Shown: piece after piece, positions 1 through 63,824 of the stretch
How positions within the stretch are numbered: position 1 is the first letter of the stretch
Layout of the letters: each line of letters begins with the position of its first letter
Source: an uncultured Desulfobacterales bacterium
GTDB lineage: Bacteria > Desulfobacterota > Desulfobacteria > Desulfobacterales > Desulfobacteraceae
Length of the DNA stretch: 64,000 nt
Assembly: GCA_964593725.1 (NCBI GenBank)
Contig: CAZQJS010000007.1
Span: 20,828-84,827 of the forward strand
Direction of reading: 5' to 3'
Made by a program: the position numbers and the translations under genes
Notes under the pieces: generated by a model
The model's input: the letters and a program-made list of their open reading frames with translations, nothing else
Database searches by the model: none
Told to the model about the DNA's origin: nothing

Positions 1-1014
1 CGACCCACTCCGGAATTAATTGAATTTTATACCACCCTGGCAAAGGGTAAAATCGGATTAATTATTTCAGGATATACCTATATAAGCCCGGAAGGCAAGC
101 AGCTGCCCGGGAAGATGGGAATCCATACAGATGATTTTGCCGATGACTTTAAAAGATTAACCGATAAAGTCCATGAACATGGGGGTAAAATTGCCATTCA
201 GCTTGTACATGCAGGCGGCCAGGCTGATAAAAAAGTTTCCGGCCACACCCCGGTTGCTCCTTCTGCTGTTAAGGCTGCCCAGTTTCCTGTTATTCCAGCC
301 ATGATGACCCAAACTGACATTGAAAGAGTTGTTACTGCATTTTATGATGCCTGCCTCCGTGCAAAAAATTATGGGTTTGACGGGGTCCAGATCCATGGCG
401 CCCATGGTTACCTTGTTAACCAGTTTCTGTCCCCCCTGACAAACCAGAGGGATGACAGGTATGGCGGTTCCATTGAAAACCGTGCAAGGTTCCTGTTTGA
501 AGTATACCATGCCATGAGATCAGGAGTGGGAGATAACTTTCCTGTTTTTATTAAACTCAATGGTGCTGACTATTTAGACAAGGGCTTTGAAATTGAGGAT
601 GCCCTGTGGGTATCAAAGCATTTGTCCAACCAGGGCATTGATGCAATTGAAGTCTCTTCAGGCACAGGTGCTTCAGGCGTATTTACCCCTGTCAGAACTA
701 AAATTACAAGCCCTGAAAAAGAGGCGTATAATATGGAACTTGCGCTCAGAATAAAAGAGCAGGTGTCATGCCCTGTCATGGCAGTTGGAGGGTTCAGAAG
801 CCTGGAAATTATTCAAAAATGCCTGGAAAAAGATGGCATTGATTTTATCTCCATGAGCCGCCCTCTGATACGGGAACCAAATCTGCCTGCACGCTGGGAA
901 AATGGTGATACAAACCCTGCAAAATGTATTTCCTGTAACAAATGTTTCATGCCTGGCCTTGCCAAGGGTGGAATTTATTGTGTGCCCCAAAGAGCAGAAT
1001 TAAAAAAAGCATAG
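1..1014 (+). CDS. NADH:flavin oxidoreductase, Old Yellow Enzyme / 2,4-dienoyl-CoA reductase-like family. The 5' end is truncated at the window edge: the reading frame is open from base 1, and the listed Met at 115 is internal.
   Basis: Translation shows OYE hallmarks: HGAHGYLVNQFLSP and a TIM-barrel FMN-binding pattern. The frame continues upstream of the first Met to position 1. The C-terminal tail carries Cys pairs (CISCNKC...C). Confidence 0.6.
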   Translation, partial: RPTPELIEFYTTLAKGKIGLIISGYTYISPEGKQLPGKMGIHTDDFADDFKRLTDKVHEHGGKIAIQLVHAGGQADKKVSGHTPVAPSAVKAAQFPVIPAMMTQTDIERVVTAFYDACLRAKNYGFDGVQIHGAHGYLVNQFLSPLTNQRDDRYGGSIENRARFLFEVYHAMRSGVGDNFPVFIKLNGADYLDKGFEIEDALWVSKHLSNQGIDAIEVSSGTGASGVFTPVRTKITSPEKEAYNMELALRIKEQVSCPVMAVGGFRSLEIIQKCLEKDGIDFISMSRPLIREPNLPARWENGDTNPAKCISCNKCFMPGLAKGGIYCVPQRAELKKA

Positions 1015-1131
1015 AGAGTCTGCCATGGCATTTTGTCTCTCTTACGTGAAAATGGTCTGTTGCCTTAAACAATTGAGTGATTATACTTAAAACTTCATAT
1101 CTGTATTAAATATTTAAAGGTGTTTTGATAA

Positions 1132-2316
1132 ATGGAAAAACCTGAGTCCTGCAATGCCAACTTTTCAGAAATTGTTCTGTCTGAAAATAAAACTGTTAAA
1201 CTGATTGGAACTGCCCATGTCTCCAAAGAGAGTGCCGTGTATGTAAAAAAAGTTATCCTTGAAGAAAAACCCGACACTGTCTGTGTTGAACTCTGTAACA
1301 CCAGGCTTGACTCCCTCAGGAATCAGGACAGGTGGCGCAACATGGATATTATTAAAATAATCAAGGAAAAAAAAGCTATTTTACTCTTTGTCAATCTCAT
1401 GCTTGCATCTTTTCAAAAAAAAATAGCAAAAAAGTTTGATATTCAGCCGGGCCAGGAAATGATTAATGCTGTAAATTCAGCTGAAAAAATCGGTGCTGTT
1501 ATAGTTCCGGCTGACAGGGATATTCAGATTACCCTTAAGCGTGTCTGGAGAGGCATGGGATTTTTTAAAAAAATAAAACTCATTTTCCAGCTTTTATTAT
1601 CCCTGGGTCCATCCGAAGATATTACAGAACAAGAGATAGAAAAAATGAAACAGGAGGACATATTAAAAAGCATATTAACTGATGTGAAAAAATCCCATCC
1701 GGAAATTGAAAAAATCCTGATAGATGAAAGAGATATGTTCCTTGCCCAAAAAATACAAAATGCCCCGGGACAGAGAATCATTGCCGTGGCAGGTGCAGGA
1801 CATGTCCCTGGAATAAAAAGATATATTGCAGAAAACAACGGTAAAAGTATTGAAGAACTTAACACTCTTCCGCCTCCGGGCAAATTTGGAGCAATATTTA
1901 AATGGCTGCTTCCAGCAGGCATTTTCCTCCTTTTTATCCTGGGATTTGTAATGGGTGGGAAAGACACAGGAACAGACATGATATGGTTCTGGATCGCTGC
2001 AAATAGTATATTTGCAGGACTTGGTGCAATCATTGCCCTTGCCCACCCCTATACCATTATTTCTGCTATTCTGGCAGCACCCCTTACATCCCTGAACCCC
2101 ATGATTGCTGCAGGATGGGTTTCAGGAATTGTGGAAGCTTTTGCAAGAAAACCAAAGGTCAGGGACTTTGAAGCCATTTCTGAAGACATTCTCACCATAA
2201 AAGGTTTCTGGAAAAACAGTGTAATCAGGATATTACTTGTGGTAGTGTTTACAAATATTGGCAGCGCCATAGGAACAATGACAGCTCTACCGCTCATGTT
2301 AAAGATACTTAACTGA
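1132..2316 (+). CDS. TraB/GumN family protein with a C-terminal membrane region
   Basis: The N-terminal motif IGTAHVSKESA...VCVELC is typical of the TraB/pheromone-shutdown family. The C-terminus is hydrophobic. Confidence 0.55.
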   Translation: MEKPESCNANFSEIVLSENKTVKLIGTAHVSKESAVYVKKVILEEKPDTVCVELCNTRLDSLRNQDRWRNMDIIKIIKEKKAILLFVNLMLASFQKKIAKKFDIQPGQEMINAVNSAEKIGAVIVPADRDIQITLKRVWRGMGFFKKIKLIFQLLLSLGPSEDITEQEIEKMKQEDILKSILTDVKKSHPEIEKILIDERDMFLAQKIQNAPGQRIIAVAGAGHVPGIKRYIAENNGKSIEELNTLPPPGKFGAIFKWLLPAGIFLLFILGFVMGGKDTGTDMIWFWIAANSIFAGLGAIIALAHPYTIISAILAAPLTSLNPMIAAGWVSGIVEAFARKPKVRDFEAISEDILTIKGFWKNSVIRILLVVVFTNIGSAIGTMTALPLMLKILN

Positions 2317-2403
2317 ACTATACTGACAACATGATGCTGACAGTAGTTGATAACATAGTCATAAAAGCATTATTTTTATTCACTTTTAAAAAAGGAGTTT
2401 AAA

Positions 2404-2817
2404 ATGAACAGATTTAAATGGTTTGCCTTATTTGTAATTTTTCTGATCCCTTATTCATTGTCTGGCTGTGTTTCCGCAAAAATTTCCCCCAATGCCGTGG
2501 ACCTTATTGTTAAATTTACATGGAAAAATACAGCAAAATGTTCCAGGATTTCTCCAAAAATCAATGTCTCCAATATTCCAAAAGGCACAAAAACCTTAAA
2601 GGTAATATTAAAAGATTTTCAGGCACCTGACTGGAATCACGGCGGAGGAACTGTGCCCTATACAGGTTCCGGCATAATTAAACCTGGAGCATTAAAAGCT
2701 GGCTACAATGGACCCTGTCCCCCGAGCGGTTCCCATAATTATGAATTTACTGTCCATGCAATTGATAAAGATGGTGTTATTATCGGGGTTGGAAAGGCTG
2801 TTAAAAAATTCCCTTAA
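2404..2817 (+). CDS. YbhB/YbcL (PEBP / Raf-kinase-inhibitor-like) family lipoprotein
   Basis: Signal peptide followed by Cys (LSGC). The motif PCPPSGSHNYEFTVHAID matches the bacterial PEBP signature. Confidence 0.55.
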   Translation: MNRFKWFALFVIFLIPYSLSGCVSAKISPNAVDLIVKFTWKNTAKCSRISPKINVSNIPKGTKTLKVILKDFQAPDWNHGGGTVPYTGSGIIKPGALKAGYNGPCPPSGSHNYEFTVHAIDKDGVIIGVGKAVKKFP

Positions 2818-2832
2818 TATTCTGATATTTAA

Positions 2833-5511
2833 CTAATGAGCCTCGGCCCAGTTTTTACCCCGGCCAATGTTAACAATAAGGGGAACTTTCAGACTGAACA
2901 GATTCTCCATCACATCCTTTGCAAGCTTTGCAAGATACTCTTTTTCATCTTGCAAAGCTTCAAAAATAATCTCATCGTGTACTGACAAAAGTATTTTTGA
3001 TTTAAGGTTATGGGTTTTTATGGCCCTGCTCATCTCTATCATTGCAAGTTTAATTAAATCTGCAGCACTCCCCTGAATAGGGGTGTTAATGGCCACCCTC
3101 CTTGCAAACTGCCTAACATTTGAATTTGGAGAATTGATCTCATTGAGTTTTCGTTTTCTGCCAAGAAGGGTTTCAACTTCCAGGTTTTTTTCAGCCTCTT
3201 TGATGGCAGCATCAATAAACCGTTTTACACCTGCATACCTTGCAAAATAGTTATCAATATAAATTTGTGCCATTTTTCTTGAAATATTAAGCTCTTTAGA
3301 AAGGCCATAGGCACTCATTCCATATACAATGCCAAAATTTATTGCCTTTGCCTGACTCCTTAAATCATTGGTTACAAATTCAGAAATAACATCAAAAACT
3401 TCCATTGCAGTTCTTGTGTGGATATCTTCATTATTTAAAAAAGCCTGTATGAGGATTTCATCATCGGCACAATGTGCAAGAATCCTAAGTTCTATCTGGG
3501 AATAGTCCGCTGAAATAAAAGTAAAACCTTTTTCTGGAATAAAAGCCTGCCTGATTTTTCTTCCCTCTTCTGTTCTTACCGGAATATTCTGAAGGTTGGG
3601 TTTTGAGCTGCTCAACCTGCCGGTGGCTGTTATTGTCTGATTAAAAGATGTATGAATCCTGTGGGTTTCCGGGTCTGCAAGTTTACTCAATGCATCAACA
3701 TATGTGGTTTTCAGCTTGCCTAGAGTTCTGTACCTGAGTACTTTTTCCGGAAGCTCATGTTTTCCGGACAGGGCTGTTAACACTTCAACATCGGTTGAAT
3801 ATCCCCTGGTTTTTTTTGTCTTTTTAATTACAGGAAGATTTAATTTCTCAAATAGAATTTCTCCAAGCTGCTGGGAGGAATTAATATTAAATGTCTGGTC
3901 AGCCAGGGTATATATCTCCTGTTCAAGGGTATCAAGTTCCTTTTTAAATATTTTTGAAAGAGTATTCAATTGTTGTTTATCAATTTTAATACCCTCCATT
4001 TCCATTTCAGCAAGAACTTTAATAAGTGGAATCTCAATTTCCGACATGAGCTTAAAAAGGTTAAAATCTTCTATTTTTTTCTTTAACTCCCCATGGGCTA
4101 AAAATGTAATATCTGCATCTTCAGCTGCATAATTCAAAGCCTCTGATATGGGCACGTCTTCAAACCCAATCTGGTTTTTCCCTTTGCCTGCAACGGTTTC
4201 ATATGATATTGTCTTATGTCCCAAAAGGTTCATTGCGATCTGATCAAGACTGTGGCCTCTGTTTGATGGATTTAATAAATACGATCCAATCATTGTATCA
4301 AAAACAATGCCCTTAAGTTTGATTCCACTCCTTGCAAGGACAATATAGTCATATTTAATGTTCTGTCCCACTTTTTTTATTTTATGATTTTCCAGAACCG
4401 GCTTTAGAATTTCAAGTACTCTTTTTTTATCAGGCTGTTCACATCCGCCTTTTTCAGTATGTCCCACAGGAATATAAAATGCCTGATGTTTTTTACAGGA
4501 AAAAGAGAGGCCCACAAGTTCTGCAGCCATTGGTATTTTTGATGTTGTCTCTGTGTCAAGGGCAAAAACAGATGCCTTTTCAAGCCTGTGCACAAGATTT
4601 TCAATGTCTTTAATCTTTGTTAAAAGTCTGTAATCTTTTCTGGACAAATCACCAGCCCCTGCAAACTCCATGGCAAGGCTTTTAAACTCATACTCCCTGA
4701 AAAGTTCTGAAATTTTATCCCTGTCAGGCAAAGGTATCTTAAACTGCTCTATGTTCTGTTCAACTTCAACAAACTTGTCTATTGTTACAAGTTTTTTACT
4801 CAACAAAGCATTATTTCTGTTTTCCTGCAAATTTTGATACAGCTTTTTTTTACCTTTTAAATCGTCAATATTTGCATACACATTTTCAATGGATTGATAT
4901 TGATTTATTAACGAACATGCTGTTTTTGGCCCTATACCTGGTACACCTGGAATATTATCTGATTTATCACCTGCAAGCCCCAGCATATCAATAAATTGTA
5001 ATGGAGTAATATTATAGTCTGCTTTTACCCTTTCAATATCCACGGTTTTATCTTTCATGGGATCCCACAGAATACAATCCCCGGTTATAAGCTGAATAAA
5101 ATCTTTATCTCCTGATACCATTACACTCTTAAAGCCCTGATCCCGGGCAAGCCTTGAATACGTACCCACAAGGTCATCTGCTTCATATCCCTGCTTTTCG
5201 ACAATTGCAATATTAAAAGCTTTTACGACCTTTTTTATATCTGGAATCTGAACAGCCATACTCTCTTCCATGGGGGGCCTGTTTGCTTTATACTCTTCAT
5301 ACATTTTATGCCTGAAGGTTAGTCCTTTTACATCAAAAAAAACAATGGCATACTCAGGTTGCTTCTCCTTTAAAAGCTTTAATAGAATTCTTGTAAAACC
5401 AAAGGTGGCATTGGTAGGATGGCCTGAGGATGTGGATAGATTTTTTATTGCATGGAATGCACGGTGAAGATATGCACTGCCGTCTATCAGGTATATCTCT
5501 TTTTTTTTCAC
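2833..5511 (-). CDS. polA: DNA polymerase I
   Basis: 892 aa. It has an N-terminal 5'-3' exonuclease region, a 3'-5' exonuclease region and polymerase motifs A, B and C (DYSQIELR, KAINFGIVYG, HDE). Confidence 0.95.
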   Translation of the reverse strand: MKKKEIYLIDGSAYLHRAFHAIKNLSTSSGHPTNATFGFTRILLKLLKEKQPEYAIVFFDVKGLTFRHKMYEEYKANRPPMEESMAVQIPDIKKVVKAFNIAIVEKQGYEADDLVGTYSRLARDQGFKSVMVSGDKDFIQLITGDCILWDPMKDKTVDIERVKADYNITPLQFIDMLGLAGDKSDNIPGVPGIGPKTACSLINQYQSIENVYANIDDLKGKKKLYQNLQENRNNALLSKKLVTIDKFVEVEQNIEQFKIPLPDRDKISELFREYEFKSLAMEFAGAGDLSRKDYRLLTKIKDIENLVHRLEKASVFALDTETTSKIPMAAELVGLSFSCKKHQAFYIPVGHTEKGGCEQPDKKRVLEILKPVLENHKIKKVGQNIKYDYIVLARSGIKLKGIVFDTMIGSYLLNPSNRGHSLDQIAMNLLGHKTISYETVAGKGKNQIGFEDVPISEALNYAAEDADITFLAHGELKKKIEDFNLFKLMSEIEIPLIKVLAEMEMEGIKIDKQQLNTLSKIFKKELDTLEQEIYTLADQTFNINSSQQLGEILFEKLNLPVIKKTKKTRGYSTDVEVLTALSGKHELPEKVLRYRTLGKLKTTYVDALSKLADPETHRIHTSFNQTITATGRLSSSKPNLQNIPVRTEEGRKIRQAFIPEKGFTFISADYSQIELRILAHCADDEILIQAFLNNEDIHTRTAMEVFDVISEFVTNDLRSQAKAINFGIVYGMSAYGLSKELNISRKMAQIYIDNYFARYAGVKRFIDAAIKEAEKNLEVETLLGRKRKLNEINSPNSNVRQFARRVAINTPIQGSAADLIKLAMIEMSRAIKTHNLKSKILLSVHDEIIFEALQDEKEYLAKLAKDVMENLFSLKVPLIVNIGRGKNWAEAH

Positions 5512-5697
5512 TTTTAACTGCTCCCTTGATTTTTAATTATGACAAATACTACCCCAAGACCAGAACAAAATCAAATTCATTACATTTTCAATTATAAAAC
5601 TTACTTGACAGATCTCCGTGTGGGCCTGATAATGCCTTAAAATATTTTATTGATAACTTTACTCAAAGGTTTATGACAAAATCAAGTCTGTTTTACC

Positions 5698-5916
5698 ATG
5701 GAAAACAAGTCAAGGGCACGGAGAAAAAAACGGAGAAAAAAACAATCAAAAACCTGCCACTGCTGCGGTCAATCCTTTATGTTTTGCTGGAACTGCAGAT
5801 GTGGATTTGCCATGTGTCAGCAATGCATGTATGAAAATCAATGGGGCTTAACATGCAATGGAATAACATGGCAGTGCCCTGACTGTGGAAAACAGAATGG
5901 ATTTGGAAACCAATAG
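5698..5916 (+). CDS. Small basic Cys-rich zinc-ribbon-like protein (hypothetical)
   Basis: 72 aa. The N-terminus RARRKKRRKKQSK is strongly basic. It is followed by 12 Cys in CxxC-type pairs (CHCCG, CWNCRC, CQQC, CPDCG). Reasonable start context. Convergent with hisD. Confidence 0.4.
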   Translation: MENKSRARRKKRRKKQSKTCHCCGQSFMFCWNCRCGFAMCQQCMYENQWGLTCNGITWQCPDCGKQNGFGNQ

Positions 5917-5917
5917 G

Positions 5918-7246
5918 TTATTCCATTGAACCTTGACTGCTGAACCTTGACTGCTTTCTCACCTTTATTGAATTTGCATGTCCGTCAAGGCCCTCCACCC
6001 TGGCAAGGGCGATGACATCATCTGCCTCCTTTTCAAAGGCCTGTTTTGAATATTGTATAAGACTTGTTTTTTTTGTAAAGTTTTCCACTGAAAGAGCAGA
6101 GGAAAACCTTGCAGTCCCTGCAGTGGGCAAAACATGGTTGGGACCTGCAATATAATCACCCATGGGTTCAGGGCTGTAGGGACCAAGAAATATTGCACCA
6201 GCGTTTCTTATCTTTCCTGTATATTCAAACGGATTATTCACCAGCAGTTCAAGATGTTCTGGTGCAAGTCTGTTTGAAAGCTCTATGGCTGTATTAATGT
6301 CAGGAACCTTAATAATTGCCCCAAAATCCTGAATCGATTTTGCGGCAATCTCTTTTCTTGAGAGTTTTTCAAGCTGCTCTTTAACACAAACAGCTGTTTT
6401 TTCTGCAATACTTAATGAGTCTGTCACAAGCATTGCAGACGCCATTGTATCATGCTCTGCCTGGGATAGAAGATCTGCTGCTATACATTCCGGGTCTGCA
6501 TTTTTACCGGCAATGATCAAAATTTCACTGGGCCCTGCTATCATGTCAATGCCAACGCTGCCAGACACAATTTTTTTTGCAAGGGTCACATAGAGATTTC
6601 CAGGCCCGACAATTACATTGACCCTTGGAATTGTTTCAGTACCAAAGGCCAGGGCTGCAATGGCCCAGGCACTGCCTGCCTTAAAAACATTATCAATGCC
6701 AACCCTTTCTGCCGTGGCTAGGATATACGGGTTAATCCTTCCATTTTCCATGGGAGGTGTTACAAGGGATATTGAGTCAACTCCTGCCACTTTAGCTGGT
6801 ACTCCGCCCATGACCACAGAAGATACAAGGGGTGTTTTACCGCCTTTTCCCCCTGGTGCATAAATTCCTGCAGCGTCCACAGGCTTTACCATCTGTCCCA
6901 CCATAACCCCCTTCCTTGGTGTATCAATCCAGGAGTTTTGGTTCTGCTTTAAATGAAATGATTCAATCTGTGTAACTGCTCTGTCAAGGGCTTTTAAAAA
7001 ATCCCTGTCAATATTCTGCCTTGCTTCCTTAAACTCATCTTCTGAAACCTTAAGGGATTTTTCTGTTACATATTTTGAATCAAAACGGTTTGTATAATGA
7101 CAGACTGCCTTGTCACCATCTTTGCGTACAGCCTCAATAAAAGTATTAACATTATTGTAATCTTCATCTGTAAACCCTAGTCCCCGTTCAATCGTGGCAA
7201 GTATCTTTTTTTCAGCACTATCTGAAGGATATTGTAAAATTTCCAT
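5918..7246 (-). CDS. hisD: Histidinol dehydrogenase
   Basis: 442 aa. Shows the conserved HisD regions (GPSEILIIAG, AEHD, GDY..GPNHVLPT). Confidence 0.9.
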   Translation of the reverse strand: MEILQYPSDSAEKKILATIERGLGFTDEDYNNVNTFIEAVRKDGDKAVCHYTNRFDSKYVTEKSLKVSEDEFKEARQNIDRDFLKALDRAVTQIESFHLKQNQNSWIDTPRKGVMVGQMVKPVDAAGIYAPGGKGGKTPLVSSVVMGGVPAKVAGVDSISLVTPPMENGRINPYILATAERVGIDNVFKAGSAWAIAALAFGTETIPRVNVIVGPGNLYVTLAKKIVSGSVGIDMIAGPSEILIIAGKNADPECIAADLLSQAEHDTMASAMLVTDSLSIAEKTAVCVKEQLEKLSRKEIAAKSIQDFGAIIKVPDINTAIELSNRLAPEHLELLVNNPFEYTGKIRNAGAIFLGPYSPEPMGDYIAGPNHVLPTAGTARFSSALSVENFTKKTSLIQYSKQAFEKEADDVIALARVEGLDGHANSIKVRKQSRFSSQGSME

Positions 7247-7348
7247 AATGTTCCTGTTTTTGATCCTAATTTGCTATGAATTCCCAAGTCCTTGATTTTT
7301 AGCAGATTTCCCATGTAAAGTCCAATTCATTATTATAGCCCTTTAAAC

Positions 7349-9739
7349 TTAAGACTTTACAGGAAGCTTAATTGTAAAAAGTGTGCCTTTACCTTTTTCC
7401 GATTCAACACTCATTTCACCACCATGATCTTCAGTGATGATAAAATATGATATTGAGAGCCCAAGCCCTGTTCCTTTATCTTTTGCCTTTGTTGTAAAGA
7501 AAGGTTCAAAAATACGGTTAAGTATGCTTTTTTCCATGCCAGGCCCGTTATCTTCAATTTCAAGACATGCCATGCCCTGGGATAAATAGGTTCTGATTAT
7601 TATCTTTAAAATACCTGCATTGTCCTTATTGCCGATAAATGCCTGGGTGCTGTTTTTTAAAATATTAAATATAACCTGCTGTATTTTGCTCCCTTCACAC
7701 GGTATATCAGGTAATTCAGGGTCATATTCCCGCTGGATCTCAAATTTTTTAAACCCTTTTTTCTTTTTTATATCATAATCAGTGCAGGCGAGCTCAATGG
7801 TTTTATCAACCTGTTCGTTCAGGCTTTGCAATGACTTTTCAGCCCCGCTTTTCTTTGCGAAATTCAACATATTTTCGACAATTTTTGCTGCCTGAACCCC
7901 TGCCTGGTTTATCTTTTCAAGATGTTCCAGAATTTTCCTGTCTTTCATATAGGATTTTATGCTCTCCAGGGTAATTCCGGCTGAGGCAGCCGCAATTTCA
8001 TTGGCTGGAAAAGATTTGGCAAGGCGGTTATACACCACCTGGGCATTCTGCATCATACCTGCAAGGGGATTATTGATCTCATGGGCCATACCGGCTGCAA
8101 GCCCGCCAACTGAGATCATCTTTTCCGTCTGGATAAGTATTGATTCAACCTTGACCTGGTTTGTAACATCATCAACATGGATTACAGCACCCTGCACATC
8201 ACCTGTTACCAGAGGGTAGATTGTAATATTCTCATAAAACAGCTCTCTGTTTTTTTTATAAGGTACTTTTAAATCTTCCTGAACTTCCTGTTTGATTATT
8301 GCTGTTGTAATTTTTTCAGAATATTTTTTCAGGCGGGGTAAAACAGTATACAGATTCTGTCCTTCTGCTTTTTCTGCTGAAAGCCCGGATTTCTTTTCTG
8401 CCTGGCGGTTAAACAATGTTATTTTATAACTGATATCTATGCCAACCAGTATTGAAGGCATTGAATTTACAATACTTGTCAAATAGCTGCGGTACTGGTT
8501 CAACTCTTTATCAGCTTTTTTACGTTGTGTAATATCAAGCCAGGATGCAAGACCTGCTGGTCTCCCATGGAACATAAGAGAACTTCCCTTAAGATATATC
8601 CATTTTTCTTCTTTTTGCTTGGTTATGAACTTGCATTCATATCCTGATGGTGCGTCCATGCCCTGGAGGCGCAAGCCTGAAATCTTTTTGATCATCTCCT
8701 TATATTCCGGAGCAAAGATATCTATAAAATACTTGTCTTTATATTCATCAAATGTATACCCTGAAATTTTTTCAGCTGCAGGATTACAATATACTATTTT
8801 ATCATCCTGATAAAGAACAATACCTATAGCAGATGTTTCTGCAACTGTTCTGAATTTGTACTCACTCTCCCTCAAAGACTCTTCCCATTTTTTCTGTTCT
8901 GAAATATCACTGATAACACATCTGAGTCCTGCAAGTCTGCCTGTTCTGTATATGGAAGATGTTTTAATTATGCCTGGAAAACAGGAGCCATCTTTTCTTT
9001 TAAAAATATATTCCCTTGACTCATCAATGGATTTTTCCCTTGTTTCATCATCTTTGCTCTTTTTCTTCAATTCTCCCTTAAAATTATCCGATGCAATCAG
9101 AGCAACACAGTTAACCCCCTGTTTTATATCTTTTTTTGAGTAACCAAGCATATCAAGTGTTTTGGAATTGGCATATGTTATTGTCAACTCATCATCTGTT
9201 TCAAAAATAGCCTCTGGTAATAATTCTGCCATATCCCTGAATCGTTTTTCACTCTCAATCACCCTCTCCATCATCTGTTTTCTCTCAATGGCAAAGGCAA
9301 TCTGGCCTGAAACAAAGATGAACATTTCAAAATCTTTTTGACTGAAATAGTTTGGTGTCTCATAGTCCTGAACTGCCATAACGCCAATGACTTTATTTTG
9401 GACAATCAAGGGAACACCAATCCATGTTTTACTCAGTTTGCCAATGGATCTCTTTGCTTTTTTCCTGCGGCTAAGCTGGTCTTCTGATAAAAAAAGGGGC
9501 TTGCCCGATAAGATAACTTCTCCGGTTAATGAATGTGTTTCCGTGAAATCATTTATATAGGACATCTCTTTATCAAACTGGTCTTTAAAATATGCAAACT
9601 CTATGGAACTTTTTTTTGCATCGTAGATTGCAATATAAAAATTGGGGCAATAGATTATTCTGTTCAATGATTTATGAATAAACCCATAAAATTTTTCAGG
9701 GCTTGCAGTTGTGTTAACTGCCTTCATTATATCATACAA
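7349..9739 (-). CDS. Sensor histidine kinase with an N-terminal GAF-like domain and multiple PAS domains
   Basis: 796 aa. H-box AHEINNPLAGM. HATPase_c N, G1 and G2 boxes (NILKNS, EDNGPGM, GTGLGLS). Upstream PAS-like repeats. Confidence 0.85.
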   Translation of the reverse strand: MYDIMKAVNTTASPEKFYGFIHKSLNRIIYCPNFYIAIYDAKKSSIEFAYFKDQFDKEMSYINDFTETHSLTGEVILSGKPLFLSEDQLSRRKKAKRSIGKLSKTWIGVPLIVQNKVIGVMAVQDYETPNYFSQKDFEMFIFVSGQIAFAIERKQMMERVIESEKRFRDMAELLPEAIFETDDELTITYANSKTLDMLGYSKKDIKQGVNCVALIASDNFKGELKKKSKDDETREKSIDESREYIFKRKDGSCFPGIIKTSSIYRTGRLAGLRCVISDISEQKKWEESLRESEYKFRTVAETSAIGIVLYQDDKIVYCNPAAEKISGYTFDEYKDKYFIDIFAPEYKEMIKKISGLRLQGMDAPSGYECKFITKQKEEKWIYLKGSSLMFHGRPAGLASWLDITQRKKADKELNQYRSYLTSIVNSMPSILVGIDISYKITLFNRQAEKKSGLSAEKAEGQNLYTVLPRLKKYSEKITTAIIKQEVQEDLKVPYKKNRELFYENITIYPLVTGDVQGAVIHVDDVTNQVKVESILIQTEKMISVGGLAAGMAHEINNPLAGMMQNAQVVYNRLAKSFPANEIAAASAGITLESIKSYMKDRKILEHLEKINQAGVQAAKIVENMLNFAKKSGAEKSLQSLNEQVDKTIELACTDYDIKKKKGFKKFEIQREYDPELPDIPCEGSKIQQVIFNILKNSTQAFIGNKDNAGILKIIIRTYLSQGMACLEIEDNGPGMEKSILNRIFEPFFTTKAKDKGTGLGLSISYFIITEDHGGEMSVESEKGKGTLFTIKLPVKS

Positions 9740-13619: not shown

Positions 13620-13648
13620 TTGACTTTTTATTTTTGTTCTTATAGATT
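13620..13648 (+). promoter_or_regulatory. Candidate sigma70 promoter for the B12-riboswitch operon. TTGACT sits at 13620-13625, with a weak -10 (TATAGA/TAGATT) about 16-17 bp downstream.
   Basis: Read directly. Lies immediately after the hisHF stop. The -10 element is weak. Confidence 0.3.
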
Positions 13649-13654
13649 TAATTT

Positions 13655-13930
13655 TTAGCCAGGTGCTGCCTTGGGCAGATAATAGGGAATCCTGTGAGAG
13701 TCAGGGACGGACCCGCCGCTGTAATCGGGGATGAGGGCTTTACAAATCACTGTAAATAAAAGCGCTTAAAAGCCGTTAATTTATGGGAAGATAAAACCTG
13801 AACATGATCCGAGAGTCAGAAAACCTGCCTGCTGAATAAATAACCCAGGATGGACGAGGAGTAAAACCGGGGTGTGAAATATGGAAAATACGGTCCCATA
13901 TCGATGGCTTCGATATGGGTTTTTTTTGCC
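13655..13930 (+). ncRNA. Cobalamin (adenosylcobalamin) riboswitch with an intrinsic terminator expression platform
   Basis: The conserved core GGGAAtcCTGTGAgAgTCAGGgaCgGACCCGCCGCTGTAAtcGGGGATGA is present. Downstream there is an 11-bp stem hairpin (CCCATATCGAT ... ATCGATATGGG, centred ~13895-13920) followed by a run of 8 T. It precedes a BtuCDF/cbi operon. Confidence 0.8.
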
Positions 13931-53385: not shown

Positions 53386-56899
<3,514 letters not shown>

Positions 56900-60487: not shown

Positions 60488-61600
60488 TTACAATAAATTT
60501 ATAACTCTATCTGTAAGACCTTTTTCACCTAATACTACACTCATTTTTGAATTGGTAACAACCTTTTCAAGGATATCAAGTTCTCTTAACCGCATCAGAG
60601 TCGGGTTGTTTTCAAGCAGTCTTGCAGTATTTGCCTGACTTCGCATTGCTGCAGTTTCTTCTCTTCTCATGATCAGGTTAGCATCTGCTGCTTTTTTTGC
60701 TTCAATTACCTTATTCATAAGCTCTTTCATGTCTCCCGGCAGAATAATATCTCTTATTCCAAAACCACAAATTAAGAGACCAAACTGTTCAGCCTTCTCC
60801 TTAATGGCAGCTTCAAGCTCCTTTGCAACCTTATCTTTTTTATTTAAGAGAGAGTCATAATCTAAAGTTCCTACCACAGAGCGGAGAGCAAGCTGTGCTT
60901 CCCGGTAAACAGCCTGATTGTTGTCACTCACTGCTGTAACAGACTTTAAAGCATCAATCACTCGAAAACTTACAAGGGCATTTATTCTTAAACTTAACTT
61001 ATCTGATGTCAGAATTTCCTGCCCGGATATATCAAGAACATTCTCTCTCATATCAACATGGTAAAATTTAATTTTTGTCATTTGGTTCCAGAATAAATAC
61101 CGGCCTGGTGACAGGGTCTTTACATATTTCCCATCTTCAAAAAAAAGACAGCTGTATCCGTCAGAAACATTAACAATGGAGAGAAAATCACTGGCATTAT
61201 CATGGTTGATAATTTTATTCATTGCTTTATGTCTGAAACTTACATCATTAGCATCAATAACTTCAACTCTGACCTTTTTAAACTTTGTCCACAGGGCATA
61301 CAGACCAGGCCCAAGAATTTTTTCAAACCGTCCTTCAAACCACACAAGGGCACGCTGATGATCCTTAAGGTCTATTACCTGAGCCTCATCTTTCAGGACT
61401 CCTGATTTAACAATTAAATCAAGGCTTTCATGTTCAATCCATGGAGATCTCGTTGAAAGGATATCCACTTTTAAATTAAAAAACAGATCAATAAACCAGT
61501 ACCGCCCTTGATTTAAAAGCCCTTTAAATTCACCACCCTTAAAATAAAACCCTTTTTCATATGATCGGATTTTTTTTGTTTTAATCATCTTTACCTCCAT
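60488..61600 (-). CDS. SPFH/band-7 (slipin-like) domain protein without a predicted transmembrane segment; first gene of the rtc operon
   Basis: 370 aa. The C-terminal ~200 aa carry an SPFH fold plus a coiled coil (…IRDIILPGDMKELMNKVIEAKKAADANLI…). The N-terminal ~170 aa are unassigned and have no hydrophobic helix. 1-nt gap to rtcA. Confidence 0.55.
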   Translation of the reverse strand: MEVKMIKTKKIRSYEKGFYFKGGEFKGLLNQGRYWFIDLFFNLKVDILSTRSPWIEHESLDLIVKSGVLKDEAQVIDLKDHQRALVWFEGRFEKILGPGLYALWTKFKKVRVEVIDANDVSFRHKAMNKIINHDNASDFLSIVNVSDGYSCLFFEDGKYVKTLSPGRYLFWNQMTKIKFYHVDMRENVLDISGQEILTSDKLSLRINALVSFRVIDALKSVTAVSDNNQAVYREAQLALRSVVGTLDYDSLLNKKDKVAKELEAAIKEKAEQFGLLICGFGIRDIILPGDMKELMNKVIEAKKAADANLIMRREETAAMRSQANTARLLENNPTLMRLRELDILEKVVTNSKMSVVLGEKGLTDRVINLL

Positions 61601-61888
61601 TTTAACCCCTAAGCTATTTTTTCATATGGCCAGGGTTGGGGTCTTGGGTAACATTTAAAAGTTTTTCCACACAAAACCTGCGGAGTATTATTTTGGTATT
61701 TGTTTTATCAATTTATACAAGCAATATTGATTACATCAAATATTCTCTCAAATACTTCATGGCATGGTTTTAAGTGCTGTTCATGAAAATTTAAACAAGA
61801 ACAAACCTTATTTTCTTTATTTTAATTATTCATAAACCAGTCAAACATTCATTTGCTTCCCCAAGACCAGTTAAAAGTTAAAAACATT

Positions 61889-61964
61889 AACCTGGAGCAG
61901 GATTTGAACCTGCGGCTGCCGTGTTAAAAACACGATGCTCTACCAACTGAGCTATCCTTTCTGA
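61889..61964 (-). tRNA. tRNA-Lys(UUU)-like element. Canonical D-, anticodon- and T-arms are present, but the 5' acceptor strand as read does not pair with the 3' strand: possible pseudo-tRNA or tRNA-like RNA.
   Basis: Reverse complement: GAAAGGA-TA-GCTCAGTTGGTAGAGC-A-TCGTG-TTTTTAA-CACGG-CAGCC-GCAGG-TTCAAAT-CCTGC-TCCAGGT. D-loop and T-loop are canonical. The anticodon loop has UUU at 34-36 with U33/A37. Acceptor 5' GAAAGGA versus 3' TCCAGGT gives only 3-4 pairs. Confidence 0.5.
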
Positions 61965-62158
61965 CACCTGACCTTGTTAGAGTCCATGTCCGGTACACAC
62001 AATATTGACTGTTTGAATAAAGTGCGCCGCTGGCCCGGCAGTATCAGAATTTGTAATTTATATAGAGCAATGGGCATACCAGTTAAAATAAAATAAGAGA
62101 TATTTTTTTTAACATATTGAAAACACGGGCTATTTTTTAAAAAACTAAAAATATATCC

Positions 62159-62186
62159 TTGACATATTTATAAAATACACTAAAAT
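62159..62186 (+). promoter_or_regulatory. Candidate sigma70 promoter for rtcR (TTGACA, 16-nt spacer, TAAAAT)
   Basis: Read directly: ccTTGACAtatttataaaatacacTAAAATaaat, ~35 nt upstream of the rtcR ATG. Confidence 0.4.
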
Positions 62187-62222
62187 AAATAGAAATATTT
62201 ATACATTTTTAGAAAATTTTAT

Positions 62223-63824
62223 ATGAAAAAGACAATTGTAATTGGAATATTAGGCCCTGTTCTGGACAGAGGAAAAAAACCATCCCGATGGGAGCACTGG
62301 AGGCCAAGCGTATCCATATGTCAGCATAGCGAGCTGCTTATTGACCGGTTTGACCTGCTTTATCAGAAAAAATACCTTTCTCTGCTGACCAGAATAACAG
62401 AGGATATTCATCAAATATCTCCTGAAACCCGGGTTGTGGGTCATGAAGTTGATTTTAAGGATGCCTGGGATTTTGAAGAAGTCTATGGTGTTTTACATGA
62501 TTTTGCCAAAACATATGAGTTTGATCTGGAAAAAGAAGAGTATCTTATTCATATTACCACTGGCACCCATGTGGCTCAAATCTGCCTTTACCTTTTAAAT
62601 GAATCAAACTATCTGCCAGGTAAGCTTATACAGACAAGCCCATCAACCAGAAGAAGAATTCATAGTGCCATTGGGGAATATAGAATAATTGATCTTGATC
62701 TTTCAAAATATGACCTTATTGCAATGCGTTTTAAAGAGGAAATCAAGGATGATATCTCTTTTTTAAAATCAGGAATAGAAACATGCAATAAAGCATTTAA
62801 TAAGCTTATCGAGCAGATTGAACAGGTTGCAATAAATTCTTGTGATCCTGTATTAATTACCGGACCAACAGGTTCTGGCAAATCAAATCTTGCAAGACGG
62901 ATATATGAACTTAAAAAATACCGCAGGCAATTAAAGGGTAATTTCATTGAAGTAAATTGTGCAACACTCAGGGGTGATGGTGCCATGTCAGCTCTTTTCG
63001 GCCATAAAAAAGGCTCTTTTACAGGAGCTTCAAGTGACAGAAAAGGACTTTTACGTTCAGCAGACAAAGGAATGCTTTTTCTGGATGAAATTGGAGAGCT
63101 GGGATTAGATGAACAATCCATGCTGTTAAGGGCAATAGAGGAAAAACAATTTCTTCCTGTGGGGTCTGATATTGAAACCAAAAGTGATTTCCAGCTTATT
63201 TGCGGTACAAACCGCAATTTATTTAAAGATGTAACTGAGCACCGTTTCAGGGAAGATCTGCTTGCACGTATTAATCTGTGGACATTTGAAATGCCAGGGC
63301 TCAGACACAGACCTGAGGATATTGAACCAAATCTGTATTATGAACTTGATCGCTTTGCAGAAAGAAATAATTCTCACATTACTTTTAACAAAGAAGCCCG
63401 CAAAAGGTTTCTTAAATTTGCAACTTCATCACAAGCCCTGTGGCCGGCAAATTTCCGGGATCTGAATGGCGCTGTTACCCGCATGGCAACCCTTGCACCC
63501 GGAGGCAGAATTACAACAAAGGTAGTGGAAAATGAGATTTACAGATTAAAATCAATGTGGTCAAATTCACATGTATCTGATTTTGAAAGTATTTTAACTG
63601 AAATTCTTGGCACAGAAAAAACATCCACCCTTGACCGGTTTGAAAAAGCACAGCTTGCTGATGTATTAAATATCTGCCGTCAATCCAAAAACATCTCTGA
63701 GGCAGGACGAATTCTGTTTGCAAGCTCAAGAAAGAAAAAAACCAGGATAAATGATTCTGATCGATTAAGAAAATATTTGTCAAAATATGAGATAAAATGG
63801 AATCAAATCCGATGTACTTTCTGA
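62223..63824 (+). CDS. rtcR: Sigma-54-dependent transcriptional regulator RtcR (CARF domain, AAA+ sigma54-activator domain, HTH)
   Basis: The N-terminus closely matches the RtcR CARF domain as remembered from E. coli (…WRPSVSICQ…HITTGTHVAQIC…IDLDLSKY…). AAA+ motifs GPTGSGKS and GAFTGA-like (GSFTGAS). C-terminal HTH. Confidence 0.85.
   Translation: MKKTIVIGILGPVLDRGKKPSRWEHWRPSVSICQHSELLIDRFDLLYQKKYLSLLTRITEDIHQISPETRVVGHEVDFKDAWDFEEVYGVLHDFAKTYEFDLEKEEYLIHITTGTHVAQICLYLLNESNYLPGKLIQTSPSTRRRIHSAIGEYRIIDLDLSKYDLIAMRFKEEIKDDISFLKSGIETCNKAFNKLIEQIEQVAINSCDPVLITGPTGSGKSNLARRIYELKKYRRQLKGNFIEVNCATLRGDGAMSALFGHKKGSFTGASSDRKGLLRSADKGMLFLDEIGELGLDEQSMLLRAIEEKQFLPVGSDIETKSDFQLICGTNRNLFKDVTEHRFREDLLARINLWTFEMPGLRHRPEDIEPNLYYELDRFAERNNSHITFNKEARKRFLKFATSSQALWPANFRDLNGAVTRMATLAPGGRITTKVVENEIYRLKSMWSNSHVSDFESILTEILGTEKTSTLDRFEKAQLADVLNICRQSKNISEAGRILFASSRKKKTRINDSDRLRKYLSKYEIKWNQIRCTF

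Follow-up and report, generated by a model that had tools for sequence, protein, structure and literature searches.

The 64,000-nucleotide (nt) stretch of contig CAZQJS010000007.1 (positions 20,828 to 84,827; assembly GCA_964593725.1, uncultured Desulfobacterales bacterium) analysed here, referred to as the window, harbours an RNA-repair operon on its minus strand. This operon comprises genes for a slipin (SPFH/Band-7), RtcA and RtcB as well as for an aminotransferase, and the gene for the regulator RtcR is located divergently (Table 1). Upstream of the slipin gene and on the same strand, a tRNA-like element was detected, with the start of the slipin gene following 306 nt downstream. A preliminary description had regarded this element (61889-61964) as a tRNA-Lys(UUU)-like gene with a non-closing acceptor, situated on the strand of the rtc operon between the operon and rtcR, and strand as well as position were borne out. 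The element is here interpreted as one arm of a structured RNA of ~408 nt (62047-61640, minus strand) that would be induced via RtcR and act as partner of the slipin, an interpretation which, taken as a whole, is considered probable with considerable reserve.

The Rfam tRNA model RF00005 matched positions 61957..61894(-) with 52.8 bits (E=1.7e-8, search of the 64-kb window). The match spans only model positions 5-66 of 71, i.e. the outer four acceptor pairs are absent. ARAGORN, which had been named earlier as a means of re-examining the element, called no tRNA anywhere in the window. Direct reading of the acceptor strands (5' strand, G61961 A A A G G A61955; 3' strand, U61896 C C A G G U61890) yielded pairing of GGA with UCC only (3 base pairs, bp), followed outwards by unpaired A-A, A-G and A-G and a possible terminal G.U. 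The sequence UAAUG directly follows the 3' acceptor strand, so that a terminal CCA is absent. The remaining three arms are canonical: D, anticodon (with loop UUUUUAA at 61930-61924) and T (GGUUCAAAUCC). The partial Rfam match, the 3-bp acceptor and the lacking terminal CCA confirm the earlier view of a tRNA-like element with an open acceptor, and its rating of the three arms as textbook agrees with the direct reading. The coordinates proposed for it were right within a few bases, except that the 4 nt at 61961-61964 belong to a neighbouring helix (P1, see below): the reported unpaired GAAA consists of G61961, which forms the last pair of P1, and a 3-nt linker.

Conservation of the tRNA-like module

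Loci encoding relatives of the slipin (160 in total) were retrieved from species-representative genomes and metagenomes. With single-sequence nhmmer searches, most loci already showed the element on the strand of the slipin gene and a few hundred nt ahead of it. Among the 131 loci with 650 nt or more of upstream sequence, 125 were found to carry it there by a hidden Markov model (HMM) of the family. Judging from the record titles, the lineages include Desulfobacterales, Geobacteraceae/Trichlorobacter, many Planctomycetota, Verrucomicrobiota and Omnitrophota. Only 30 of the 125 element-bearing loci possess Rtc genes within the fetched flank. All counts given in the following for the module, its loop and the helices P1 and P2 refer to an alignment of 80 sequences (A2).

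Each of the three acceptor pairs is formed in 77-79 of the 80 members, which demonstrates that the degenerate acceptor is retained in orthologous loci, a point left for comparison with relatives by the preliminary description. The innermost of these pairs covaries (UA 61, AU 11, GC 4, CG 1; the window represents an AU case), and a fourth and a fifth pair form in 58 % and 51 % of the sequences, respectively. Across the aligned relatives, the 3-bp acceptor is the family norm. Nucleotides U8, A14, G46, U54, U55, C56 and A58, known from tRNA tertiary contacts, are invariant or nearly so, and the Levitt pair 15-48 covaries (GC 47, AU 17). The anticodon stem likewise displays strong covariation, its loop being unconstrained: 27 distinct "anticodon" triplets were counted among 71 seven-nt loops, A34 occurs in 25 and U33 in only 46 of these 71, and nine further members have loops of 5, 6 or 8 nt. 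Even the nearest relatives of the window carry AUAACAA, CUUAUAA, CUGGGGA, AUCUAA, UUGAGGC, CUAAUAC or CAUGAC at this place. Since tertiary contacts are invariant and the Levitt pair covaries, as opposed to the free loop and the short acceptor, selection acts on the L-shaped body rather than on an anticodon or a chargeable end. By this comparison, UUU, U33 and A37 in the window, to which the preliminary description had drawn attention, are a coincidence without meaning, and the module cannot, as judged from its conserved features, be aminoacylated or decode.

A CCA is present internally at 61895-61893, within the paired 3' acceptor strand. The 3' acceptor strand together with the next base (window 61893-61896 (-); A2 columns 211-214) reads (A/U)CCA in most members, the fourth place being occupied by A in 61 of the 80. 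A CCA thus exists, albeit in base-paired and internal form.

Two explanations that take the element as a tRNA gene, intact or decayed, were weighed against these data. A functional decoding tRNA-Lys with misread ends would agree with the textbook D, anticodon and T arms and with UUU flanked by U33 and A37. This explanation has practically no probability left, considering that only three acceptor pairs exist, that the 5' side enters P1 after a 3-nt linker and the 3' side enters a hairpin (H1), that the loops of orthologues are unrelated to Lys, and that neither a terminal CCA nor a discriminator context is present. A decaying tRNA-Lys(UUU) pseudogene or remnant of an att site, the former being one of the two options offered previously, could account for the unpaired acceptor, the missing CCA and the silence of ARAGORN. 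It is refuted as virtually without credence by the retention of position, strand and architecture in 125 of 131 loci across phyla, by compensatory stem changes, by the invariant tertiary nucleotides and by the conservation of the very same 3-bp acceptor.

In relatives, ARAGORN assigned spurious identities to the module, namely Ala-AGC, Leu-AAG, Val-AAC, His-ATG, Ser-ACT, Asp-ATC (A34) or "???" (loci L003, L004, L010, L021, L023, L042, L045, L056 and others). Such calls in genome annotations are likely mis-annotated modules of this type, and annotators should avoid labelling these elements tRNA genes or pseudogenes. Some family members (L122, L143, L047 and L041) have a tandem arrangement, in which an additional module, tRNA-like or containing a T arm, is inserted between P1 and the conserved module, directly 5' of the latter.

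Helices and promoter around the module

Conserved blocks extend over the entire region between promoter and slipin gene, and the structured RNA to which the module belongs is far larger than the latter, a fact that the preliminary description had overlooked. On its 5' side, a domain was delineated in which helix P1 encloses the irregular hairpin P2 and ends 3 nt (AAA) before the module acceptor. Motifs CCAGCGGCGCA and GUGU(A/U)CCG..AUGG are conserved in this domain. Compensatory changes were observed in 10 of 11 pairs of P1, and pairs 28:108 in P2a (AU:67/GC:13) and 32:100 in P2b (GC:75/AU:5) exchange as well. For the 5' domain plus module, 88.2 % of the cells are paired as compared to 76.8 % in shuffled alignments, and 492 double-change cells compare to 164, with none of 500 shuffles performing as well; slid registers yielded 31-45 % pairing. 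An HMM built from 99 other members, i.e. excluding the window, matched 62058-61893(-) with E=6.3e-35 and covers the 5' domain as well as the module. In the window itself, all family pairs of P1 and P2 are canonical except two in the interior of P2c and the outermost three of P1. A small local hairpin of the form CCG-loop-UGG within the 5' domain was also considered and was rejected, as covariation pairs these bases with CCAGCGG.

Folding of the 416-nt unit to minimum free energy (MFE) gave -106.3 kcal/mol (z=-3.06) and recovered, without comparative input, P1, P2, the three tRNA arms, H1 and the 9-bp helix P5 (GGUCUUGGG/CCCAAGACC). The MFE fold of a 211-nt segment was indistinguishable from shuffles (z=-0.67). 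At the gathering threshold, Rfam searches of the window and 16 related loci revealed no family other than tRNA to cover the RNA; at E<=10, the window leader and locus L013 yielded, besides tRNA, only matches at chance level, including a sub-threshold one to YrlA.

On the 3' side of the module, the family layout consists of one or two hairpins followed by a long rod, which is closed by P5 and contains a branch hairpin and P6-P9. The window carries H1 (GUUAA-UGUUU-UUAAC), and the second hairpin of the family (H2) is absent from it. In the family rod, 85.2 % pairing over 67 pairs (71.9 % shuffled, maximum 73.1; 34-43 % when slid) and double changes in 63 of the 67 pairs are generous figures, since the structure was derived by RNAalifold from the same alignment that was used for counting. 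The putative rod of the window is a diverged, AT-rich and reduced version, in which 36 of 51 family pairs are canonical upon threading, versus 17-25 of 51 when slid. Five conserved 3' blocks occur in order only at 61778-61636 within the whole window, and none of 20,000 shuffles contained more than three blocks in order. The unit was annotated as 62047-61640 on account of the HMM match, pair threading, ordered blocks and MFE; its extent is assigned with high confidence for 62047-61877 and with moderate confidence for the rod (61868-61640). The open state of the acceptor is explained by its outer end, which is the junction with P1, H1 and P5 instead of a free RNA terminus. A competing pairing of CCAGGUUAA (61895-61887) with UUAACUGG (61874-61867) (-), which would disrupt the acceptor and the start of P5, was noticed and may be a chance product of the repeated UUAAC.

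Upstream of P1, a sigma-54-type promoter (TGGTATGCCCATTGCT) was read from the sequence. Transcription is predicted to start at about 62055, some 8 nt upstream of P1. Motifs of the type TGGCAC-N5-TTGC are found at the equivalent place in RtcR-type relatives (e.g. L001, L020, L043, L054 and L056). This location of the motif upstream of the element places the latter inside the predicted RtcR-dependent transcript, ahead of the first gene. AT-rich, partly palindromic repeats resembling TTATAAAT/ATTTATAA lie beside the start of rtcR (62160-62222), with equivalents in other RtcR-type loci (L003, L009, L010, L015, L017, L019 and L041), and represent candidates for an RtcR upstream activating sequence or an autoregulatory site. 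The longest open reading frame (ORF) of the slipin gene starts at 61600 (-); however, the Shine-Dalgarno (SD) sequence GGAGG at 61598-61594 precedes an ATG at 61588, which is likely the true start, because homologues align from ORF residue 5 and GGAGG is located before it.

Table 1. Positions of the RNA, its parts and the adjacent genes in the window
Feature	Position	Strand	Basis or remark
Sigma-54-type promoter	62066..62081	(-)	GG 62080-62079, GC 62068-62067; read from sequence
5' domain	61961..62047	(-)	covariation on A2; HMM; single-sequence MFE
Helix P1 (8 bp)	62047-62040/61968-61961	(-)	encloses irregular hairpin P2
P2a	62033-31/61986-84	(-)	
P2b	62029-27/61993-91	(-)	
P2c	62026-62018/62004-61996	(-)	
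AAA linker, P1 to 3-bp acceptor	61958..61960	(-)	
tRNA-like module (b7a-tRNA-like)	61894..61957	(-)	Rfam tRNA match; family covariation; invariant tertiary-contact nucleotides
Module, acceptor (3 bp)	61957-55/61896-94	(-)	
Module, D arm	61952-61937	(-)	
Module, anticodon arm	61935-61919	(-)	loop 61930-61924, "UUU" 61928-61926
Module, variable loop	61918-61914	(-)	
Module, T arm	61913-61897	(-)	
Hairpin H1	61877..61891	(-)	directly 3' of acceptor; window MFE; covarying H1 in relatives
Putative 3' rod, diverged AT-rich version	61640..61868	(-)	threading, blocks, MFE
P5	61868-60/61648-40 (9 bp) and 61857-54/61653-50	(-)	
Branch hairpin, base	61837-34/61782-79	(-)	
P6	61777-74/61672-69	(-)	
P7	61766-62/61681-77	(-)	
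P8	61758-47/61695-83	(-)	
Apical region	61746-61696	(-)	
Slipin / SPFH (Band-7) gene	60488..61588	(-)	Pfam Band_7 3.8e-29
rtcA	60486-59449	(-)	Pfam RTC 2.8e-74; downstream, same operon
rtcB	59419-58214	(-)	Pfam RtcB 2.4e-108; downstream, same operon
rtcR	62223..63824	(+)	CARF-type RtcR domain and sigma-54 AAA+ activator; Pfam RtcR 1.3e-81, Sigma54_activat 1e-49; divergent

Elsewhere in the window, a cobalamin riboswitch (RF00174, 104.7 bits) was detected at 13644-13846 (+). As dnaN adjoins gyrB (53386-56899, +), the window is probably located near the chromosomal replication origin.

Genomic settings and the slipin

Dense arrays of 20-34 canonical tRNA genes precede the RNA and the slipin gene in many loci of Planctomycetota, filling 3-4 kb on the same strand (L013, L023, L024, L025, L036, L037, L047 and others, ~1-3400 each; also the viral contig L162). 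The array usually ends with Arg-Arg-Arg-Cys(GCA) ~100 nt before P1, so that the RNA looks like the last "gene" of a tRNA operon; RtcR, RtcA and RtcB were not found in the flank of these loci. In Adhaeretor mobilis (L023), the slipin gene is followed by two genes for RlaP (PF10127, RNA-repair-pathway Pol-beta nucleotidyltransferase; 5124-6140 and 6916-7680), a different repair module attached to the same pair of RNA and slipin.

These settings bear on the possibility that the structure acts solely in cis, i.e. as an attenuator in the 5' untranslated region (UTR), a processing site or a stability element tuning slipin-rtcA-rtcB; P5 and a following U-tract could, for example, form a terminator unless remodelled, or tRNA-processing enzymes could bind the module. 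Indeed, the structure resides between the only recognisable promoter and the first gene, 36 of 56 non-Rtc loci have a U-rich tract (at least 5 U in 10 nt) behind the 3' strand of P5, and a hairpin precedes the SD sequence in the window. The U-tract is, however, weak in RtcR-type loci (5 of 22) and absent from the window; a terminator composed of P5 and U-tract accordingly holds in many Planctomycetota loci and fails in the window. Between P5 and the start codon, the spacing is anywhere from 23 to 175 nt in the aligned set and some loci carry inserted repeats, from which it follows that the RNA is not coupled to the ribosome binding site. Moreover, the next gene is rtcB rather than slipin in L017 and L043, the RNA of Planctomycetota directly follows tRNA arrays like another stable RNA, and 400-650 nt with an invariant tRNA core far exceed the needs of known attenuators. 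A role as cis-acting leader is, on balance, unlikely, yet deserves consideration.

Several hundred nt are inserted between P5 and the slipin start in L084, L085, L020 and L054; the inserts before the slipin gene include short tandem repeats, e.g. CACAATTCACAATTC in L020.

The slipin is predicted to be soluble, no hydrophobic anchor having been found in it. Its AlphaFold2 (AF2) model comprises N-terminal beta repeats, an SPFH domain and a long helix (predicted local distance difference test, pLDDT, 75.8). Foldseek searches with this model aligned the cage-forming stomatin, HflK/C and prohibitin over about 230-270 columns (at most 272), and chains of the major vault protein (MVP) over 400-419 columns (query, 370 residues). 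Since only the MVP alignments exceed the 370 residues of the query, MVP alone among the listed PDB matches can include the N-terminal repeats. The modelled slipin resembles MVP in this respect; a structure of an Rtc-type slipin was not found in the PDB.

The eukaryotic vault particle consists of major vault protein, vault RNA and TEP1. Common to both systems would be a cage-type SPFH protein together with a small structured RNA, as well as an MVP-like layout of beta repeats, SPFH "shoulder" and long helix, as far as the model goes. In contrast to MVP with its ~800-900 residues, the slipin has 366 aa and shares ~10% identity, and vault RNAs are not tRNA-like in this way.

Known tRNA-like RNAs and the possible role in RNA repair

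Among bacterial RNAs, the module is first of all comparable to canonical tRNA, with which it shares D, anticodon and T arms, the variable loop and all tertiary-contact nucleotides; it differs by its 3-bp acceptor, the lack of a free 5' or 3' end, the unconserved anticodon and the variable length of the loop. The abstract of the 2016 work of Burroughs & Aravind is said to pair SPFH/Band-7 modules with "a novel tRNA-like molecule", similar to TROVE with Y RNAs. The occurrence of RtcB beside a Band-7 protein and a predicted non-coding RNA (ncRNA) in certain bacteria was described by Wang et al. (2018, bioRxiv 10.1101/312249). According to this preprint, the ncRNA, a prediction of Burroughs & Aravind (2016), "strongly resembles an authentic tRNA", lacked experimental validation as of 2018 and, under the name b7a-tRNA (band-7-associated tRNA), was proposed as functional counterpart of YrlA in RtcB loci (bioRxiv 10.1101/312249).

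The element of the window agrees with this description in every feature and is a member of this predicted kind: it forms a tRNA-like cloverleaf (Rfam tRNA match and arms covarying across 80 relatives), and it adjoins a Band-7/SPFH gene in an RtcB repair locus with rtcA and rtcB downstream and rtcR divergent. Differences to this description, in which the b7a-tRNA appears as a tRNA-like molecule only, consist in the embedding within a 400-650-nt RNA with P1/P2 and rod, in the conserved 3-bp acceptor and in the location of most family members away from Rtc genes. In the literature collection searched, no description of the RNA later than the 2018 preprint was found; a 2026 survey of SPFH proteins in Pseudomonas noted a slipin in the rtc locus and did not mention the RNA. 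As far as checked, the larger RNA around the module is new to the literature.

Analogy to the bacterial Y RNAs had been the second option of the preliminary description, and it pointed in the right direction insofar as the b7a-tRNA has been proposed as YrlA counterpart; the element itself is not a Y RNA. Y RNAs (YrlA; Yrn1 of D. radiodurans) likewise carry a tRNA-mimicking module within a larger ncRNA and occur in RtcR-controlled rtc operons. The conserved tertiary-contact nucleotides and Levitt-pair covariation found here have also been reported for YrlA, and in Yrn1 the arms (D-like, anticodon-like and T) are likewise arranged in natural order, a terminal stem occupying the acceptor position. 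Membership in the YrlA family, working together with Ro60/Rsr, could also draw on the weak match of relative L013 to the YrlA model; with 19.5 bits (E=0.19) this score is, however, far below the cut-off of 69, and the model (RF02553) had no match in window 61550-62260 at E<=10. The arms are permuted in YrlA (T-acceptor-D), as opposed to the natural order D-anticodon-T here, and the present RNA is 4-6 times longer than Y RNAs. The Rsr motif GNCGAAN0-1G exists in only 10 of 80 members, with AACAAGG at this place in the window, and a Ro60 gene is not among the operon genes (slipin, RtcA, RtcB, aminotransferase), to which the TROVE screening was limited. Assignment to the Y RNAs is very improbable.

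RtcR is reported to respond to tRNA halves with a 2',3'-cyclic phosphate end. In the scenario favoured here, damaged tRNA would activate RtcR, which in turn would promote sigma-54-dependent co-transcription of the RNA and the genes for slipin, RtcA and RtcB. As the RNA begins a few bases past the sigma-54 promoter, it would be the first product once the slipin-rtcA-rtcB operon is switched on. The tRNA-like module belongs to a conserved non-coding RNA accompanying the slipin gene, and this RNA may act as partner of, or scaffold for, a soluble slipin oligomer of vault-like kind. Repair or processing enzymes that recognise tRNA, or the substrates of such enzymes, could dock on the tRNA elbow of the RNA, in the manner proposed for Y RNA and Ro60. 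Anatomy, conservation, covariation, linkage to slipin, promoter motif and fold resemblance are observed; transcription, binding of RNA to protein and a role in repair are inferred.

The same context of RNA repair and conflict would also suit a decoy or sensor, in which the module baits tRNA-targeting ribotoxins such as anticodon nucleases and either feeds the resulting cyclic-phosphate ends back on RtcR, in line with its reported sensing of such tRNA halves, or titrates the toxin. The anticodon loop is what anticodon nucleases read. An arms race might explain the hypervariable loops; in the present family, however, the loop differs even among close relatives, in sequence as well as in length, the rest of the module being invariant, and most members are not located beside RtcR. 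A decoy function is accordingly quite unlikely.

Several points weigh against the favoured scenario of an RtcR-induced RNA partner of the slipin. Its entire support is comparative sequence analysis, and related sequences may surpass shuffles without possessing real structure. The covariation test of the rod is circular, with RNAalifold structure and counts deriving from one alignment, a sequence-only HMM of the 3' domain misses the window, and the rod was assigned there by threading and short motifs that were chosen after the window had been seen. The N-terminal repeats of the slipin model are of only moderate confidence (pLDDT 55-65). Equivalence to the b7a-tRNA rests on a one-paragraph description in a citing preprint. 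Finally, the RNA formally resides in the slipin 5' UTR, leaving room for a purely cis-acting role.

A further-reaching generalization is put forward tentatively, as a possibility rather than an expectation: the RNAs may constitute an undescribed family of three-domain molecules of ~400-650 nt, absent from Rfam 15, that are dedicated partners of a soluble MVP-like SPFH protein. Together they might form a bacterial "vault-like" ribonucleoprotein (RNP) for tRNA/RNA maintenance, induced by RtcR/sigma-54 along with RtcA and RtcB in loci of the Desulfobacterota type and encoded at the 3' end of tRNA arrays beside RlaP in Planctomycetota.

The Rtc system of RNA repair is widespread, with its physiological substrates and cofactors being poorly defined. 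If the present interpretation is true, the slipin-linked, tRNA-shaped RNA would play the part of an RNA cofactor, similar to Y RNA in its pairing with Ro60. With its helices mapped and its 5' end predicted, the defined RNA of ~400 nt offers a concrete molecule to experimenters, and the MVP-like partner suggests a connection, amenable to testing, of bacterial RNA-repair RNPs with eukaryotic vaults.

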